A stretch of 41,636 nucleotides of DNA from an archaeon (lineage in GTDB: Archaea > Nanobdellota > Nanobdellia > SCGC-AAA011-G17 > GCA-2687815), in contig NZBH01000008.1 of assembly GCA_002687815.1 (NCBI GenBank), forward strand, positions 1-41,636, written 5' to 3'. The notes under the pieces are model-generated. The model made no database searches and had not been told where the DNA came from. It saw only the letters and a program-made list of their open reading frames with translations. Made by a program: the position numbers and the translations under genes. Positions 9,568 to 33,013 of the stretch are shown here, piece by piece (the stretch's first letter is position 1; each line of letters begins with the position of its first letter).

Positions 9568-11439
9568 CTATTTTGATAATGTTACTATTTTAGTCTCTAC
9601 AATAGTATTATCTTTTATTAATGAAATAAAATATATTCCACTAGAAACTTTTTCTGCATTCCAAGTTACATTATATGCACCAGGTAACGGAGAACCATCA
9701 AACAAAGTTTTTATTTGTTTACCTGAAATATCTCTAACTTTAAGAAATATATTAGAATACATTGGTACATTATATTTTATAGTAACGGAATTATTAAATG
9801 GATTGGGATAGGGTGCACCAAGACTATATGTTAAGGGATTTATAGAGTAATTATTTTCTACAGATAAAAGACAATCTTGCCAAGTAATTATATGATCTGA
9901 AATACAAGAAGGATATGGATAACAGAAATTATTCTCAGTTAAACCTATAGTTATTTCATTATCAATAAGAATACAAATACTGTCTGAGAAAATCTCTCCA
10001 AGATTGTTATCATGTAAAAAAAGATAATTTAATTCAGGTAAAATAAAAATAGAATTAGGAATATTTCCAATTAAATTATTTTTTGATAAAATAATACTAT
10101 TTAAATTTGATAAATTTCCAATATTTTCTGGAATCTTACCCCCAATATTATTATTACCTAAATTTAAAGTTTTTAATTCTGTTAAATTTCCAATAGATTC
10201 AGGAATTTGACCAGTAAGTCCTTCTTCATATAATTTTAATTCTATTAATCTTCCATTAAACCAAACTTGATCCCCTATAGATACCGGATCTTGTCCTTGT
10301 AATTCTTCAAATGAATCAACAAAGTTTTGTAAGATATCAATATCATTTTGAGAATAATAATCAGAATTACAATCAAACCATTGCATAGTTGAATCGGAGA
10401 ATGGTGAATTAAAAACAAATAATCCATTTTCTCTATCACTTGATATAAGATATCCACTAGGTAACTCAGTATATACACCCCAATTTCCACTAAACGGAGC
10501 CTCTAGATTTGTAGTATCGTAATAACCAATTTCAATTGGATTAAATGGATCAGATATATCAAGAACACGAGTTCCAGCTGTGTAATAAGATATTACTACA
10601 AATCCATCTTTAACATATACATTATGAGCAGATTGAACAAAAGATGTATAAATACCTTCGAAAGTTTGATATTCAGATAATAAATTTATATTATTATAAT
10701 TTGAAATATCCCATATTTTAACATGCCCTCCTATATTTTCATCAGCTGTAATTAGATATTTTTCATCTGCCGTTACCGCTACATCATGAAGACTTATATA
10801 GCCTCCTCCAGAGTCCCAAATACCGATAGTCTCTGGATTAGTTTTATTACTTACATCAATAATATAGAAATATCCTGTATATATTCCCGCTCCATATACT
10901 TTATTATTATATACTTCAATATCATGTAAATATCCACCTTCCCATGTACCAATTAATTCTGGTAATTCTGGAGTGCTTAAATCATAAATCCATATATCAT
11001 GATCATTAGCACCCACTACGTAAAGATAACCATCTGCATCAATATGAATATTATGACTATTAGTAATAGCAGTAATAGTATGTACTAAAATAGGAGTATA
11101 AGGATCTTCAACACTTACTATTTTTATTCCATCTGCTGCTTCTGTTCCTATATAAACATATTTATTCCAATATTTTATATCTCTCCATTCACTAAAAGTA
11201 CCCTCTATATATTCAATCTCAACTGGTTGAGTTGGAACCGTAATATCTATAAATGATACTCCTTCTGTAAGACCTACTACAGCAAATTCTTTGCCATCTA
11301 ATTCAAATCCTGTTAAATCAGATACTCCTTGATTGTCAAAATCATTAAATATACTAAGTAATTCTATATTACAGCTTTCTCCCGCAGACTGAGAAAATAG
11401 TGAAGTAAACATTATTAAATAAATTAAATAATATTTCAT
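9568..11439 (-). CDS. secreted protein: signal peptide + LVIVD-repeat beta-propeller + plant-type LRRs + T9SS (Por) C-terminal sorting domain
   Basis: The track start at 11448 is a TTG. The ATG at 11439 gives MKYYLIYLIMFTSLFSQSAG, a signal peptide. Repeated xxVxDISxP motifs (IWIYDLSTP, FYIIDVSNKTNP, VKIWDISN, TRVLDISDPFNP). LRRs: LTGQIPESIGNLTELKTLNLGNNNIGGKIPENIGNLSNL. C-terminus: YPNPFNNSVTIKYNVP...ISGKQIKTLFDG...GAYNVTWNAEKVSSGIYFISL. Confidence 0.8.
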   Translation of the reverse strand: MKYYLIYLIMFTSLFSQSAGESCNIELLSIFNDFDNQGVSDLTGFELDGKEFAVVGLTEGVSFIDITVPTQPVEIEYIEGTFSEWRDIKYWNKYVYIGTEAADGIKIVSVEDPYTPILVHTITAITNSHNIHIDADGYLYVVGANDHDIWIYDLSTPELPELIGTWEGGYLHDIEVYNNKVYGAGIYTGYFYIIDVSNKTNPETIGIWDSGGGYISLHDVAVTADEKYLITADENIGGHVKIWDISNYNNINLLSEYQTFEGIYTSFVQSAHNVYVKDGFVVISYYTAGTRVLDISDPFNPIEIGYYDTTNLEAPFSGNWGVYTELPSGYLISSDRENGLFVFNSPFSDSTMQWFDCNSDYYSQNDIDILQNFVDSFEELQGQDPVSIGDQVWFNGRLIELKLYEEGLTGQIPESIGNLTELKTLNLGNNNIGGKIPENIGNLSNLNSIILSKNNLIGNIPNSIFILPELNYLFLHDNNLGEIFSDSICILIDNEITIGLTENNFCYPYPSCISDHIITWQDCLLSVENNYSINPLTYSLGAPYPNPFNNSVTIKYNVPMYSNIFLKVRDISGKQIKTLFDGSPLPGAYNVTWNAEKVSSGIYFISLIKDNTIVETKIVTLSK

Positions 11440-11500
11440 AAATTCCAATTTTTTATAGTTTTAAAAATCAATACTAAAGGTTCGTCCCTAAAGAATATGT

Positions 11501-11799: not shown

Positions 11800-12204
11800 T
11801 TAGTTAACCTTTATTTGCTTTGAAATAGTAGTCTTATTCGAGGCCGGAATTGTAATCCTAAGTAGTCCATCCTTAGCAATCGCTGTAATACTATCAATAT
11901 CACAATTTTCACTAAGTCTGAACGACCTTCGAAAGTTTCTAAGAACTAAGCTACTATCATTAGTTATGTCATTTTTACTACTGATAGTAAGGATATCATG
12001 AATAATATCAATATTAATATCCTTTTTTGCATAGCCTGGAACTGCCATTTCTACTACCTGGTCCCCATTTTTGTCAGTAAAATTACTATATGACACAGAG
12101 GATGAAGGCCTACTAAAAGGCCATTCAATTTCAGACGTAAATCCAGATAAGCCGTCTAACAGATTATGTAATCCGTTAGGTCTATTTGTTAATGAACTAT
12201 TCAT
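11800..12204 (-). CDS. small heat-shock protein, Hsp20/alpha-crystallin family
   Basis: VVEMAVPGYAKKDINIDIIHDILTISSK...FRRSFRLSENCDIDSITAIAKDGLLRITIP is the alpha-crystallin domain pattern. SD GAAGGAGA lies 5 nt upstream. Confidence 0.85.
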   Translation of the reverse strand: MNSSLTNRPNGLHNLLDGLSGFTSEIEWPFSRPSSSVSYSNFTDKNGDQVVEMAVPGYAKKDINIDIIHDILTISSKNDITNDSSLVLRNFRRSFRLSENCDIDSITAIAKDGLLRITIPASNKTTISKQIKVN

Positions 12205-30789: not shown

Positions 30790-31009
30790 TAGAATTTTCC
30801 TTATCTATTATTATTTGATATATTTCAAGAAAATTACATTCTTCACACCAAATTGGTTTACATTTATGATTTCGATATTGAGCTTCATGTTCTTTACAAT
30901 ACTTTTTTGCCATTTTATTAAAGTGCTTATTAGTTTTTTTAAGCATTACTCTTTCATCTAATGAAGTTATATCCCTTCCACATTTAGAGCATATGTTCTT
31001 TTTCTTCAA
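30776..31009 (-). CDS. Cys-rich zinc-finger-like small protein (TTG start)
   Basis: CSKCG...CKEHE...HKCKPIWCEEC. The TTG start overlaps the recA-like stop (TTGA). Confidence 0.5.
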   Translation of the reverse strand: MKKKNICSKCGRDITSLDERVMLKKTNKHFNKMAKKYCKEHEAQYRNHKCKPIWCEECNFLEIYQIIIDKENSNEEI

Positions 31010-32265
31010 TCTATAGATATCCTATCAATTAATTCGTTAAGAAGGCCCATTTCTTGTAATTTTGCATAAATTGTTGCAGGTTTAGAACCTCTTAAACTAA
31101 TAGGTTCTTCATCAACATTTACATATGTAGTACTTGTACCTGTAGTAGTTAATGGACTGTCTTCTATAAGATTATTTAATGCCATTGTTACGTATTCAAA
31201 TCCTATATTAAAGCCTCTATCAAAGAAGAAATATGTTTCTAACATATCTCCTTCTCTAAGTCCTTTATATTTACTTTTAGCAACAGTTATCTTTAATTTA
31301 TAAGCTACAGATTCATTTCCAATTTCTAAAAATTGGCTAGTTGAACTATGCTTAATTCTAGATAATTTCATATATAATAAATCTGCATATTTTCTAGCAT
31401 TACCGCCACTCATTGATGAAAAAGCTATACTTCCACCAAGATTAGTTCTATGTTGTCCTATCAATATGAGAGTAGTATTATTACTTCTAAAATGAAATGA
31501 TACTCTGGGATACCATTTACTCATAGCCCTAGCCTTTAAAGCCATGGTATCATCATCTATATCTTTTTCTACACCTTTTTTAGTTTCTAAAGTTCCTCGA
31601 GGATTAGCAGCATCAAGAGAATCTATGATTACTAAATCTACAAGAGATTCCTTAGTAGCTCTTTCTATAAAATCTAAACCATCTTCTAAGGCTTCTCCTT
31701 CCCATAAATATAAATTATCTGTATCTACTCCAAGTTTTTGAGCCCATTTAGCATCTAAAACAGATTCATAATTAACAAATGCAACAACTTTACCTTGTCG
31801 TTGATATTGACCGGCCATCATAAGAGCAAAACTAGTCTTGCCTACTGAAGGTTCTCCGCTTATACTTATCTGTCCTCCAGATGGAAAACCACCTTGAGAC
31901 CAAGAGTCTAGTAAAGGAAATCCAGTCTGTTCCTGTTTAATAGTTAAAAATTCTTCTGGTAATTCAGATCCTTTACCTATAACTACTTTACTTCCCTTTT
32001 TTTCAGCTTTCTTTTTTGCTTTATTTACTAATGCATCTAAAGCTTCCATCTTTTCTTTTTTATCCATTGCTTTCCATCCTTTTATAGATTCTAATTGCCA
32101 AGGTTCTTTTCTTTTTATAAAGGCATCTATCCAAGGTGCCTTTTTTCTCATTCTTATTTTACAATTTTCTGTAGTTTTAGTTCGTGGAAAATTTCTAGTA
32201 CAGTTTAGATTGGTATCTAAATTGTACCATACACACTTTTCACACCTTTCTTTAATATAATTCAT
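31006..32265 (-). CDS. RecA-superfamily recombinase with N-terminal Cys-rich (zinc-ribbon-like) extension
   Basis: Walker A SGEPSVGKTSFAL, Walker B LVIIDSLDA, SGGNARKYADLLYMKLSRI (compare RecA GGNALKFYASVRLDIRR). The start is reset to ATG 32265 (MNYIKERCEKC) because the 60 aa upstream in the track lie over the tRNA and the tmRNA 3' end. Confidence 0.8.
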   Translation of the reverse strand: MNYIKERCEKCVWYNLDTNLNCTRNFPRTKTTENCKIRMRKKAPWIDAFIKRKEPWQLESIKGWKAMDKKEKMEALDALVNKAKKKAEKKGSKVVIGKGSELPEEFLTIKQEQTGFPLLDSWSQGGFPSGGQISISGEPSVGKTSFALMMAGQYQRQGKVVAFVNYESVLDAKWAQKLGVDTDNLYLWEGEALEDGLDFIERATKESLVDLVIIDSLDAANPRGTLETKKGVEKDIDDDTMALKARAMSKWYPRVSFHFRSNNTTLILIGQHRTNLGGSIAFSSMSGGNARKYADLLYMKLSRIKHSSTSQFLEIGNESVAYKLKITVAKSKYKGLREGDMLETYFFFDRGFNIGFEYVTMALNNLIEDSPLTTTGTSTTYVNVDEEPISLRGSKPATIYAKLQEMGLLNELIDRISID

Positions 32266-32274
32266 AATTATTGA

Positions 32275-32344
32275 AGCGGAGATAGGAATCGAACCTATTA
32301 CCTCTGGGATATGAACCCAGTATGCAACCATTACAATTCTCCGC
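32275..32344 (-). tRNA. tRNA with CAT anticodon (Met / fMet / Ile2-type)
   Basis: - strand: GCGGAGAATTGTAATGGTTGCATACTGGGTTCATATCCCAGAGGTAATAGGTTCGATTCCTATCTCCGCT. Acceptor GCGGAG/CTCCGC, anticodon arm CTGGG-TTCATAT-CCCAG, T arm ATAGG-TTCGATT-CCTAT. The D arm is compact and slightly non-canonical. No CCA is encoded. Confidence 0.7.
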
Positions 32345-32347
32345 AAT

Positions 32348-32666
32348 TGGTGGAGATGGGGGGAATCGAACCCCCGTCTTGACAGCAATGCTATAAAGTC
32401 ATTCACAAGTTTAGTTAGTTTCTTTCCTACTAACAAAGTCAACATTTCTTAATTCATTATTTAGCATCGCGATTAAGTATTGTTATTCCTACGATCGGTC
32501 TTCCGATTGGTAACACCGCCTGATCTTATATCGGAGTCAAAGGGCGATGACTAACTACGCGTAAGCGTAATTAGTGTTGTAGTTTGTATAATTGCCTATT
32601 AAACAATTGTACGAGTTTACTTGCACTTTATATCAAAAATCTACCAATCGAAACCATGGCATCCCC
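32348..32666 (-). ncRNA. ssrA: tmRNA (SsrA), full length, tag ORF (A)GNYTNYNTNYAYA
   Basis: - strand 5' GGGGATGCCATGGTTTCGATTGG ... GACGGGGGTTCGATTCCCCCCATCTCCACCA 3'. A 7-bp acceptor GGGGATG/CATCTCC includes G3:U. T arm GGGGG-TTCGATT-CCCCC, discriminator A, encoded CCA. Internal ORF: GGC AAT TAT ACA AAC TAC AAC ACT AAT TAC GCT TAC GCG TAG. Confidence 0.9.
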
Positions 32667-32677
32667 ATACTGAAAAC

Positions 32678-33013
32678 TTACATCTTATCTAAGATAATTT
32701 CCAATAAATTTTTAAATAAAGACATATCCATATGGATCATAACTTCTTTTTTATTATTTCTAGTAACAAATATAGGACTTAATCCTCTTCGTCCGATTTG
32801 TATTTTTGCCTTATTCCAATCTTTAGTCGGTACGGAATGAGAAGATACGTTTCTATCTTTACATTCAAACCCTAGCTGAACTGGAGAGTCCCCCTTATAT
32901 TTAGGGGAGAGATCTCCATCACCAAATACATTACCAGATCCTGGATTGAATTTAAGACCAAGCAGTTCTCCTAATTCGTCCATAACAATTTGTTCTAAAG
33001 CTTGTTTACTCAT
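32678..33013 (-). CDS. small PD-(D/E)xK-like nuclease
   Basis: 111 aa. GSGNVFGDGDL...QLGFECKDR fits a D...ExK catalytic layout. ATGA overlap with the upstream ORF. Confidence 0.5.
   Translation of the reverse strand: MSKQALEQIVMDELGELLGLKFNPGSGNVFGDGDLSPKYKGDSPVQLGFECKDRNVSSHSVPTKDWNKAKIQIGRRGLSPIFVTRNNKKEVMIHMDMSLFKNLLEIILDKM

Follow-up and report, generated by a model that had tools for sequence, protein, structure and literature searches.

A reduced one-piece tmRNA gene with an AYA-ending tag in the replication module of an uncultured marine phage

The minus strand of a 41,636-bp contig raises the question of whether a phage may carry its own complete transfer-messenger RNA (tmRNA, the product of ssrA) and, if so, what a tag peptide ending in Ala-Tyr-Ala (AYA) would mean for the proteins to which it is added. 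The contig, which is called the window here, is an entire public GenBank record, filed under an "[archaeon]" metagenome-assembled genome (MAG) with the locus tags CL621_* (CL621_00940, CL621_01070/MAG50214.1). A sequence-only reading of it had proposed a full-length phage-encoded tmRNA, hidden under a spurious extension of an open reading frame (ORF), with a tag that could alter the fate of the tagged proteins by ending in AYA rather than in the usual LAA. The existence of the gene is confirmed: window 32348-32666, on the minus strand, is a genuine full-length one-piece tmRNA gene within a phage replication module. The novelty of its ending is not, and the RNA is likely to be a selectively maintained phage tmRNA with a host-type AYA tag, which would act as an ordinary degron and top up ribosome rescue during infection.

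The identity of the gene was settled by the Rfam covariance model RF00023, whose match covers exactly 32348-32666 (-) and the entire model (1-374) with 103.1 bits (E 2.2e-39), the gathering score being 47 bits, while the homologues described below score 89.9-103 bits. The minus-strand sequence starts with GGGGATGCCATGGTTTCGATTGG and ends with GACGGGGGTTCGATTCCCCCCATCTCCACCA, and all of the landmarks proposed for it can be read there, i.e., the acceptor stem GGGGAUG/CAUCUCC, the G3:U70 pair, the T arm, the discriminator A and the encoded CCA, in a length of 319 nt that is indeed short for a tmRNA. When folded as a single sequence, the RNA has a minimum free energy (MFE) z-score of -4.27 in relation to shuffles, and the MFE fold recovers the acceptor stem, the T arm, the tag hairpin and a stem of the pseudoknot PK2. 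ARAGORN, which had been suggested as a check, did not provide one, given that the tmRNA and the adjoining tRNA were both missed at the default setting (in the whole window and in a 1-kb sub-range), at -ps and at -ps90, and that the tmRNA was seen at the same coordinates only at -ps80, where the score threshold is relaxed to 80%, with a wrong internal frame and the flag "Tag not identified". The 5' end lies 11 nt from the stop codon of the upstream 111-aa gene, as claimed, and the 3-nt gap claimed for the downstream tRNA is actually 2 nt (RF00005, 32274-32345).

The structure of the RNA is also supported by its pattern of variation. An explicit structure of 69 pairs, which includes the acceptor stem, helix 2, helix 5, both stems of PK2, a 3' hairpin and the T arm, was scored on 22 full-length sequences, and 97.1% of the cells were found to form standard pairs, in comparison with 39-47% in controls in which the 3' partners had been slid by 1-3 columns. 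Compensatory changes on both sides were observed in 21 pairs, and the covariation score was matched in 0/500 shuffles. The alanine identity pair G3:U70 is invariant in 22/22 sequences, and the acceptor stem around it switches as a unit, from GGGGAUG/CAUCUCC to GGGCUUG/CAAGUCC, through double compensatory changes at pairs 4 and 5. Compensatory changes are also present in four of the five T-stem pairs, in six of the nine outer pairs of helix 5 across the family, and in four pairs of PK2 stem 1, which is 100% paired, as is stem 2, with its C-G/U-G/U-A series. The long helix 2 (24 pairs, 99-100% paired) is mostly invariant, with one compensatory change, and one conserved 3' hairpin shows covariation. 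The CCA is encoded only in the window copy and in the loci L130, L121 and L110, the other members having CAA, CAC or CAT. The RNA is intact and conserved, and it has all the elements needed for alanylation and for the templating of a 13-residue tag.

The frame of this tag reads GGC AAT TAT ACA AAC TAC AAC ACT AAT TAC GCT TAC GCG TAG and encodes GNYTNYNTNYAYA followed by the stop. In the E. coli tmRNA, U85 and A86, at positions -5 and -4 from the resume codon, determine the frame (PMC2481249). The consensus resume codon of the Rfam alignment falls on GGC, U(-5)A(-4) precedes the proposed resume codon in 26 of the 27 family members, and the differences among the family tags include synonymous changes of Ala (GCT/GCA/GCG), Tyr (TAC/TAT) and the stop codon (TAG/TAA), all of which uphold the tag (A)GNYTNYNTNYAYA in the frame that had been proposed. 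This tag is common to the window, L130 and L136, whereas the commonest phage tag, found in 14 contigs, is GNYTNYNVAYA, and further tags of the family are GNYTNNNANYAYA, GNYTNTNFNYAYA, GNYTNTNFNYNVAYA and GEYNTQVAYA. The AYA end is found in 25 of the 32 complete tags, while AYAA is seen in four, AAA in two and AVA in one. Given that the frame stays open and is conserved across the family, the proposed tag is right and its AYA end is a selected family trait; without a Leu-Ala-Ala or Ala-Ala end, the window tag falls outside the definition of the ClpX-type LAA degron. An alternative frame that starts at GCA (AIIQTTTLITLTRS) was rejected, as it meets an early stop in L034 (AIIQTTT-stop).

The AYA end must be considered in the light of the tags found in cellular genomes. 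One genome per species was scanned for tags that end in AYA-stop, the 5' end of the tmRNA serving as the anchor. This returned at least 119 loci; the counts are lower bounds and, as the scan was preselected for AYA, they do not give the frequency of AYA within any phylum. ARAGORN calls a tmRNA in at least 87 of these loci, and at least 84 of the tags end in AYA, while, among the matches listed, approximately 12 more loci are real tmRNAs that ARAGORN missed and approximately 14 are chance matches. The lineages include the Patescibacteria (...PAFAYA, ...LAYA), uncultured gut Bacilli/Tenericutes (GNSYKNAVAYA) and the Marinimicrobia/Neomarinimicrobiota, the tags of the Marinimicrobia being ANYGNVAYA, ANYGQVAYA, ADYGQVAYA, ANSYGTVAYA and ADNYGMAYA; another cellular example is ANSKVAAPAFAYA. 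No tmRNA of a marine Bacteroidota with an AYA tag was found among the matches listed, and one candidate from a Bacteroidetes MAG (L229) was discarded as a chance match in a coding region. The AYA ending is a regular class of cellular tag into which that of the window fits, and a fate-altering novelty is not what these genomes, including those of the marine Marinimicrobia with ANYGNVAYA, indicate. Genuine cellular tmRNAs with a clear 5' end and an in-frame ...AYA tag that were missed by the default ARAGORN (L156, L169, L177, L186, L190, L201, L203, L207, L209, L210, L227, L233, L235, L250, L251, L262 and L272) belong mostly to the Patescibacteria and to uncultured Bacilli, and tmRNAs of the AYA type or of reduced form seem to be systematically under-called by this program.

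With regard to the carrier, the window is a phage contig that was binned by mistake with an archaeal MAG. Among its products are a family A DNA polymerase (PolA) with a UDG domain, a primase, two helicases, a ribonucleotide reductase and a clamp loader, in addition to a RecA/UvsX-like recombinase, SSB, an SbcCD-like nuclease, a DNA ligase and thioredoxin/glutaredoxin, and the same contig bears genes for an M15 peptidase of the endolysin type and for a tail fibre that has an S74 chaperone domain. Genes of phage replication and recombination lie on both flanks of the tmRNA, on the same strand, the GC content is uniform along the contig (24-36%), and no integrase was seen among the window ORFs scanned. 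Three more assemblies contain the same locus, on two Tara/ENA contigs and on CEPX01136267.1. The claim that the tmRNA is phage-encoded stands, and its place is within a phage genome rather than at a junction of prophage and host, given the replication genes on both sides, the tail fibre and this recurrence. The carrier is an uncultured, lytic-type marine double-stranded DNA phage, of which the window is an incomplete genome, its relatives being found on contigs of 50-177 kb.

The claim of a spurious ORF also stood. The maximal ORF of the recombinase (479 aa, 31006-32445) would cover 98 nt of the tmRNA, and it is the only version of this gene that enters it, given that the coding sequence (CDS) in GenBank, MAG50214.1 (441 aa, start at 32331), overlaps the tRNA and not the tmRNA. 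Six homologues align with the recombinase at its N-terminal motif, MxYIKERCxxC, which places the true start at the ATG at 32265, and, because this start is conserved, the DNA under the tmRNA is ruled out as the N-terminus of the recA-like protein. On the basis of the recombinase (46-62% identity), a family of uncultured marine phages can be delimited, in which SbcC, glutaredoxin, SSB, a 390-aa protein, the 111-aa protein and the recombinase are syntenic, the 111-aa gene in all the relatives. At the position of the tmRNA, these relatives have only a tRNA (L019, L025) or nothing, in an intergenic gap of 0-310 nt, and no tmRNA homologue was found by nhmmer in any of their loci.

The tmRNA family was traced through the RNA itself, and consists of 32 distinct sequences in all, from marine metagenomes. 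A homologue is present on each of two IMG/VR contigs (L034 and L040; 51 and 70 kb), and a metagenome scan with a conserved 20-mer yielded approximately 35 further marine contigs, 19 of its 56 matches having been discarded as chance matches within a freshwater protein-coding gene. In IMG/VR, an exact 31-nt pattern of the 3' end was set aside as not lineage-specific, as it retrieved unrelated tmRNAs (two-piece forms and those of huge-phage tRNA arrays), a degenerate tag pattern gave 0 matches, and a locus search with the RecA-like protein gave no confirmed relative. Among the INPHARED phages, the only match of blastn and megablast was a distant tRNA-Met, with no genome related to the window, and tblastn with PolA found matches at 22-28% identity only.

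Most copies of the tmRNA are preceded by a TTGACT box and, after 18 nt, TAAGTT, approximately 49 nt upstream of the mature 5' end; boxes of this kind are seen, for example, in L130, L034 and L120, 20-55 nt before the tmRNA. The window copy retains only TGTAAGTT of it, inside the end of the 111-aa gene. Promoters of the Bacteroidota type have the form TTTG/TAnnTTTG, and the conserved box is instead a classical -35 box of the sigma-70-like type. A tRNA with the anticodon CAU follows most of the family tmRNAs, either within 2-41 nt or with a tiny hydrophobic ORF in between. L034 and the window share several proteins that are 40-57% identical, and the tmRNA and tRNA of L034 are found in a different gene neighbourhood. 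Because the neighbourhoods differ across the relatives, while the upstream box and the tRNA are shared, the promoter-tmRNA-tRNA(CAU) unit behaves as a mobile cassette within a marine phage lineage. In the window, this cassette has come to lie between the recombinase and the resolvase-like gene, at a hotspot that bears tRNAs.

A number of features of the cassette deserve a description of their own. The tiny ORF is found between the tmRNA and the tRNA in L115, L122, L136, L108, L120 and L145, approximately 10-110 nt downstream, and has a GGAG ribosome-binding site and a hydrophobic peptide of approximately 25 residues (e.g., ...IPMVIITVFIIWLMWPPNSEE). In L034, L117 and L132, the spacer is taken up by AGTACGGAAA repeats and an inverted TTTCCGTAT, 1-40 nt downstream of the tmRNA, which may form a hairpin or serve as a signal for processing or termination. 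In L121, 11 nt of the tmRNA 3' end (CCCATCTCCAC) are duplicated approximately 40-50 nt downstream, and this copy resembles an att-like scar and may trace the route of cassette movement. The tRNA(CAU) has a U1-U72 mismatch and a discriminator U, both conserved in the family homologues, and could be an initiator Met, an elongator Met, or an Ile tRNA via lysidine. Three G:C pairs, an initiator-like trait, occur at the foot of the anticodon stem in the window copy only, whose 11:24 pair is an elongator-like U:A, and an initiator tRNA found no support as a family trait, given that this GGG/CCC signature is absent in most homologues. In L107, the tRNA(CAU) is replaced by a tRNA with the anticodon UGC (Ala-like, GGGGATAT...ATCTCCA), 13-90 nt downstream, whose acceptor stem resembles that of the tmRNA.

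SmpB, the partner protein that was to be sought in the rest of the genome, is not encoded in the window or in any locus of the phage family, and the same search finds SmpB in 55 bacterial loci, beside ssrA. Because the phage DNA examined lacks it, the tmRNA would have to rely on host factors. The window also encodes an Hsp20/alpha-crystallin small heat-shock protein (11800-12204, -; PF00011, 54.7 bits), a second gene related to proteostasis. In related phages, host-like genes are found beside the recombinase (L025 5365-8148; L019 6328-8483; L021 1225-1614; L027 5084-6040), which include a SusC-like TonB-dependent receptor (CarboxypepD_reg and Plug), NeuB with a family-29 glycosyltransferase (sialic acid), a peptide deformylase and a second RecA. 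The features discussed above and below are located in Table 1.

Table 1. Location of the tmRNA gene, its structural elements and the neighbouring or host-marker genes in the window.
Feature	Position	Strand	Basis
One-piece tmRNA (ssrA) gene, 319 nt	32348..32666	-	RF00023, fold z-score, covariation
Acceptor stem 5' strand GGGGAUG, including G3 of the alanine identity pair G3:U70	32660..32666	-	Covariation
Tag ORF, resume codon GGC to stop UAG, encoding GNYTNYNTNYAYA and stop	32555..32596	-	Rfam alignment, U-A rule, conservation
Helix 5 hairpin over the tag end and stop codon	32550..32575	-	MFE fold, covariation
Pseudoknot PK2 (stem 1, tmRNA positions 118-127/140-153; stem 2, 132-137/160-165)	32502..32549	-	Covariation
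T arm, acceptor 3' strand, discriminator A and encoded CCA	32348..32375	-	Covariation
tRNA(CAU), the second cassette gene, separated from the tmRNA by 2 nt	32274..32345	-	RF00005, 49.7 bits
RecA/UvsX-like recombinase CDS, 419 aa	31006..32265	-	Pfam RecA, 113 bits; phrog_97 UvsX-like
111-aa gene, weakly resolvase-like	32678..33013	-	phrog_2002 Holliday junction resolvase, E 2e-6
LVIVD/leucine-rich repeat (LRR) protein with C-terminal sorting domain of the type IX secretion system (T9SS), 626 aa, host marker	9568..11448	-	PF18962, 34.8 bits (cut-off 27)

The host marker is the last gene in the table, which encodes a 'choice-of-anchor B' protein with LVIVD repeats and LRRs, which has hundreds of homologues at 45-64% identity. 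All of the homologues with a taxon name belong to Candidatus Marinimicrobia (51-62% identity; P0039, P0069, P0118, P0132 and P0135), and one of them, P0039, lies on a 115-kb MAG contig in a cellular context, where it is one of several Por_Secre_tail surface proteins; a T9SS sorting domain is also encoded in a Neomarinimicrobiota locus that was retrieved on account of its tmRNA. The gene is likely to be derived from the host. The T9SS gene had been read as a link to the Bacteroidota, and the domain itself is real, but the link is not sustained, as the domain is not Bacteroidota-specific and, with named homologues from the Marinimicrobia, suits that lineage no less well. Gly-initial ...NYALAA tags had been taken as Bacteroidota-type, of which the window has the Gly resume codon, with an AYA and not an ALAA end.

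The comparison with the tags of candidate hosts was successful in part, given that the AYA end matches that of the Marinimicrobia, while the body of the tag differs (a Gly start and NY repeats, in contrast with ANYGNVAYA). The phage tag GNYTNYNVAYA and the Marinimicrobia tags have NVAYA in common, and 18 nt, AACGTAGCTTACGCTTAA, which encode NVAYA-stop, are identical in the phage loci L127/L155 and in the MAGs L164/L170/L196, which have a tag of the Marinimicrobia type and are labelled only 'bacterium'. The source name TARA_037_MES indicates a mesopelagic sample. Because the named homologues of the T9SS protein are from the Marinimicrobia and AYA tags are found in that lineage, the Marinimicrobia (SAR406) are a fairly probable host. 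This is a major deep-ocean phylum for which, to our knowledge, there is no cultured phage-host system, and nothing relevant was found in the literature on tmRNA of SAR406 phages or on T9SS in the Marinimicrobia.

How such an RNA would work can be outlined, where its expression, its charging, its use of host factors, the benefit to the phage and the host itself are what we infer from the sequences. The cassette would be transcribed from its own promoter or by read-through, the precursor would be cut by the RNase P of the host and trimmed at its 3' end, and most relatives would also require the addition of CCA by the host. The alanyl-tRNA synthetase (AlaRS) of the host would then charge the tmRNA with alanine via G3:U70 and A73, and the host SmpB and EF-Tu would deliver it to stalled ribosomes, which are expected to build up as the host mRNAs are degraded during infection. 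Translation would resume at GGC, five nt after the U-A dinucleotide, and append (A)GNYTNYNTNYAYA, whose terminus matches the degron class of the host, so that the nascent chains would be degraded and the ribosomes and amino acids recycled. The phage copy would thus top up the rescue capacity, with the fate of the tagged proteins unchanged, and the AYA tag would most likely be an ordinary degron for host proteases. Similar general roles were proposed for the two-piece tmRNA of phage Melnitz (PMC9004378).

A number of observations weigh against this account. The check for PK1-PK4 supported both stems of PK2, together with the acceptor stem and the T arm, but PK1 was not found by eye, by RNAalifold or by covariation, and nothing covaries in the 22 nt between helix 2 and the resume codon, where L145 and L139 carry a 17-nt insertion; a helix given by RNAalifold at columns 75-82/92-99 was rejected as PK1, as it is invariant and overlaps the resume codon and so provides no evidence. 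In the Rfam alignment, the inner stem of PK1 is deleted and PK3/PK4 are largely deleted, and this reduction of the PK3/PK4 region in the family accounts for the length of 319 nt. The activity of the tmRNA is an assumption for this reason, i.e., the lack of an identifiable PK1 and the reduction of PK3/PK4. In E. coli, the pseudoknots of the tmRNA can be replaced with the activity intact (PMC2481249). In addition, 7/32 of the family tags end in AYAA, AAA or AVA, and L018 (6028-6345, the same as L147 and CEPX01136267.1) has a tmRNA identical to that of the window save that 1 nt is missing from the GG of the resume codon. This deletion would shift the tag to AIIQTTTLITLTRS under the U(-5)A(-4) rule, and it may reflect a fault in the assembly or a defective allele.

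The host assignment is exposed to objections of the same kind. It draws on one gene and the terminus of the tag, and the AYA-preselected scan (at least 119 loci) fails to show either that AYA is universal in the Marinimicrobia or that it is absent from marine Bacteroidota. Outside the tag end, the body of the tmRNA has no specific likeness to Marinimicrobia tmRNAs (14-17 bits by nhmmer), the acceptor stem being GGGGAUG in the phage versus GGGGGCG in the Marinimicrobia and the resume codon Gly versus Ala, so that a fit to the host SmpB is presumed rather than seen. Given this lack of special similarity, the phage tmRNA is not a recent capture, and a search for a cellular donor with a hidden Markov model of the family gave weak matches only, of which a Saccharibacteria tmRNA scored highest (39 bits), and pointed to no recent donor.

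Other explanations must be weighed against the topping up of ribosome rescue with an ordinary degron. The one closest to the original proposal is that the AYA end allows the tag to escape LAA-specific recognition by the host ClpXP, so that the tagged proteins are not degraded normally. LAA is indeed absent from the tag, its N-terminal body (Gly start and NY repeats) is different from that of ANYGNVAYA, none of the approximately 70 ARAGORN-detectable tmRNAs on IMG/VR contigs that were retrieved by conserved tmRNA end motifs ends in AYA, and a mismatch would be real if the host were a member of the Bacteroidota with an ALAA tag. On the other hand, AYA is a widespread cellular terminus (at least 84 genomes) and is no sign of escape on its own, the best host candidate uses it too, and a non-LAA tag of Mycoplasma is still an efficient degron, read by Lon, in which the C-terminal residues matter (PMC8403727). 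As AYA is normal in cells and is probably the ending of the host itself, escape loses its main support and is unlikely. The RNA might instead be a decoy that titrates the SmpB of the host or competes with the host tmRNA, shutting down trans-translation with no relevance of the tagging, as proposed for the tmRNA of mycobacteriophage DS6A, which consists of the tRNA-like domain only (PMC4131195), and the reduced pseudoknot ring and the lack of a phage SmpB would suit this role. A decoy has no need, however, of a tag frame, U-A dinucleotide, stop codon and helix 5 that are under purifying selection with synonymous changes, and this selection on the frame makes it very unlikely.

It might also be argued that the gene is a mere passenger with no role in the phage, either a fragment of a host ssrA left by integration or excision, or a chimera of assembly or binning. 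The ssrA gene is a common site of phage integration, with fragments at prophage ends (PMC9004378), truncated tmRNA matches were found (L002, L004 and L012), the contig is filed under an archaeal MAG, and L121 carries the short duplicate CCCATCTCCAC downstream. Here, however, the gene is full length with both ends intact, sits among same-strand phage replication genes with gaps of 11 and 2 nt, recurs in independent assemblies and, in a diverged form, at another position in related phages, most copies come with their own conserved TTGACT box upstream, there is no close cellular counterpart, and the GC content of the contig is uniform, all of which leaves a passenger the least probable of these explanations. 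A further reading goes beyond the topping up of rescue and sees in the cassette a mobile translation-takeover unit specific to phages of the Marinimicrobia, in which the AYA end is kept for the host proteases and the body of the tag (Gly start, NY repeats) is specific to the phage. This is doubtful; if it were true, the tag body could change adaptor binding or mark the products of damaged host mRNAs for preferential recycling.

In comparison with known systems, the phage RNA shares with the bacterial one-piece tmRNA, such as E. coli SsrA (ANDENYALAA), the G3:U70 pair, the T arm, the ACCA end, the long helix 2, a tag ORF after U(-5)A(-4), a stop codon in helix 5, PK2, and an NY-A motif near the tag end. 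It differs in its length (319 nt versus approximately 360), in the unidentifiable PK1 and reduced PK3/PK4, in a resume codon for Gly (GGC) rather than Ala, in AYA rather than LAA, in being encoded by a phage, and in being missed by the default ARAGORN. The Marinimicrobia tmRNAs (L205, L208, L213, L223, L249, L254 and L267) are also marine and have the (N)VAYA/AYA end and the U-A at -5/-4, but they are 349-356 nt long, with 43-58% GC, the acceptor GGGGGCG and the resume codon GCC (Ala), and, because the nucleotide similarity is weak (14-17 bits), the gene as a whole was not transferred recently. The tags of Mycoplasma and Mesoplasma that are read by Lon are similarly non-LAA, with an aromatic-Ala or Ala-aromatic-Ala end, and are working degrons, yet they have 27 residues and belong to organisms without ClpXP (PMC8403727). 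Their case shows that the termini of tags co-evolve with the protease repertoire. The ending of these tags is said to be ...YAFA, after Gur and Sauer 2008.

Among phages, tmRNAs were catalogued in the cluster C mycobacteriophages (Bxz1 and others) and in Bacillus phage G (PMC4131195), and a survey with ARAGORN found them in 402 of 18,146 phage genomes, where the marine ones are almost all two-piece and approximately 2.5% of the one-piece phage tmRNAs are marine, two-piece forms being known in Melnitz and the pelagimyophages (PMC9004378). The window family resembles the reported cases in having a complete ssrA in a lytic-type genome, tRNA neighbours, no phage smpB in the DNA examined, and a proposed role in the upkeep of the hijacked translation apparatus. 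It differs from the reported marine phage tmRNAs in being one-piece, reduced, unrelated in sequence and missed by ARAGORN, and is probably tied to a host phylum other than that of the reported phage tmRNAs.

There is nothing new in the mechanism, then, and what is new is a reduced one-piece family of marine phage tmRNAs. As the surveys rely on ARAGORN, which is blind to this family at its default setting, the one-piece tmRNAs of marine phages are under-counted, and the public records have CDS calls overlaid on the adjacent RNA gene. The AYA tag, together with the Marinimicrobia-like T9SS gene, provides a concrete hypothesis of a SAR406 host for a contig filed under an archaeal MAG, and the terminus of a phage tmRNA tag may aid the prediction of hosts. 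If the cassette were indeed a takeover unit of Marinimicrobia phages, the tag termini could act as a host-lineage barcode for uncultured phages.

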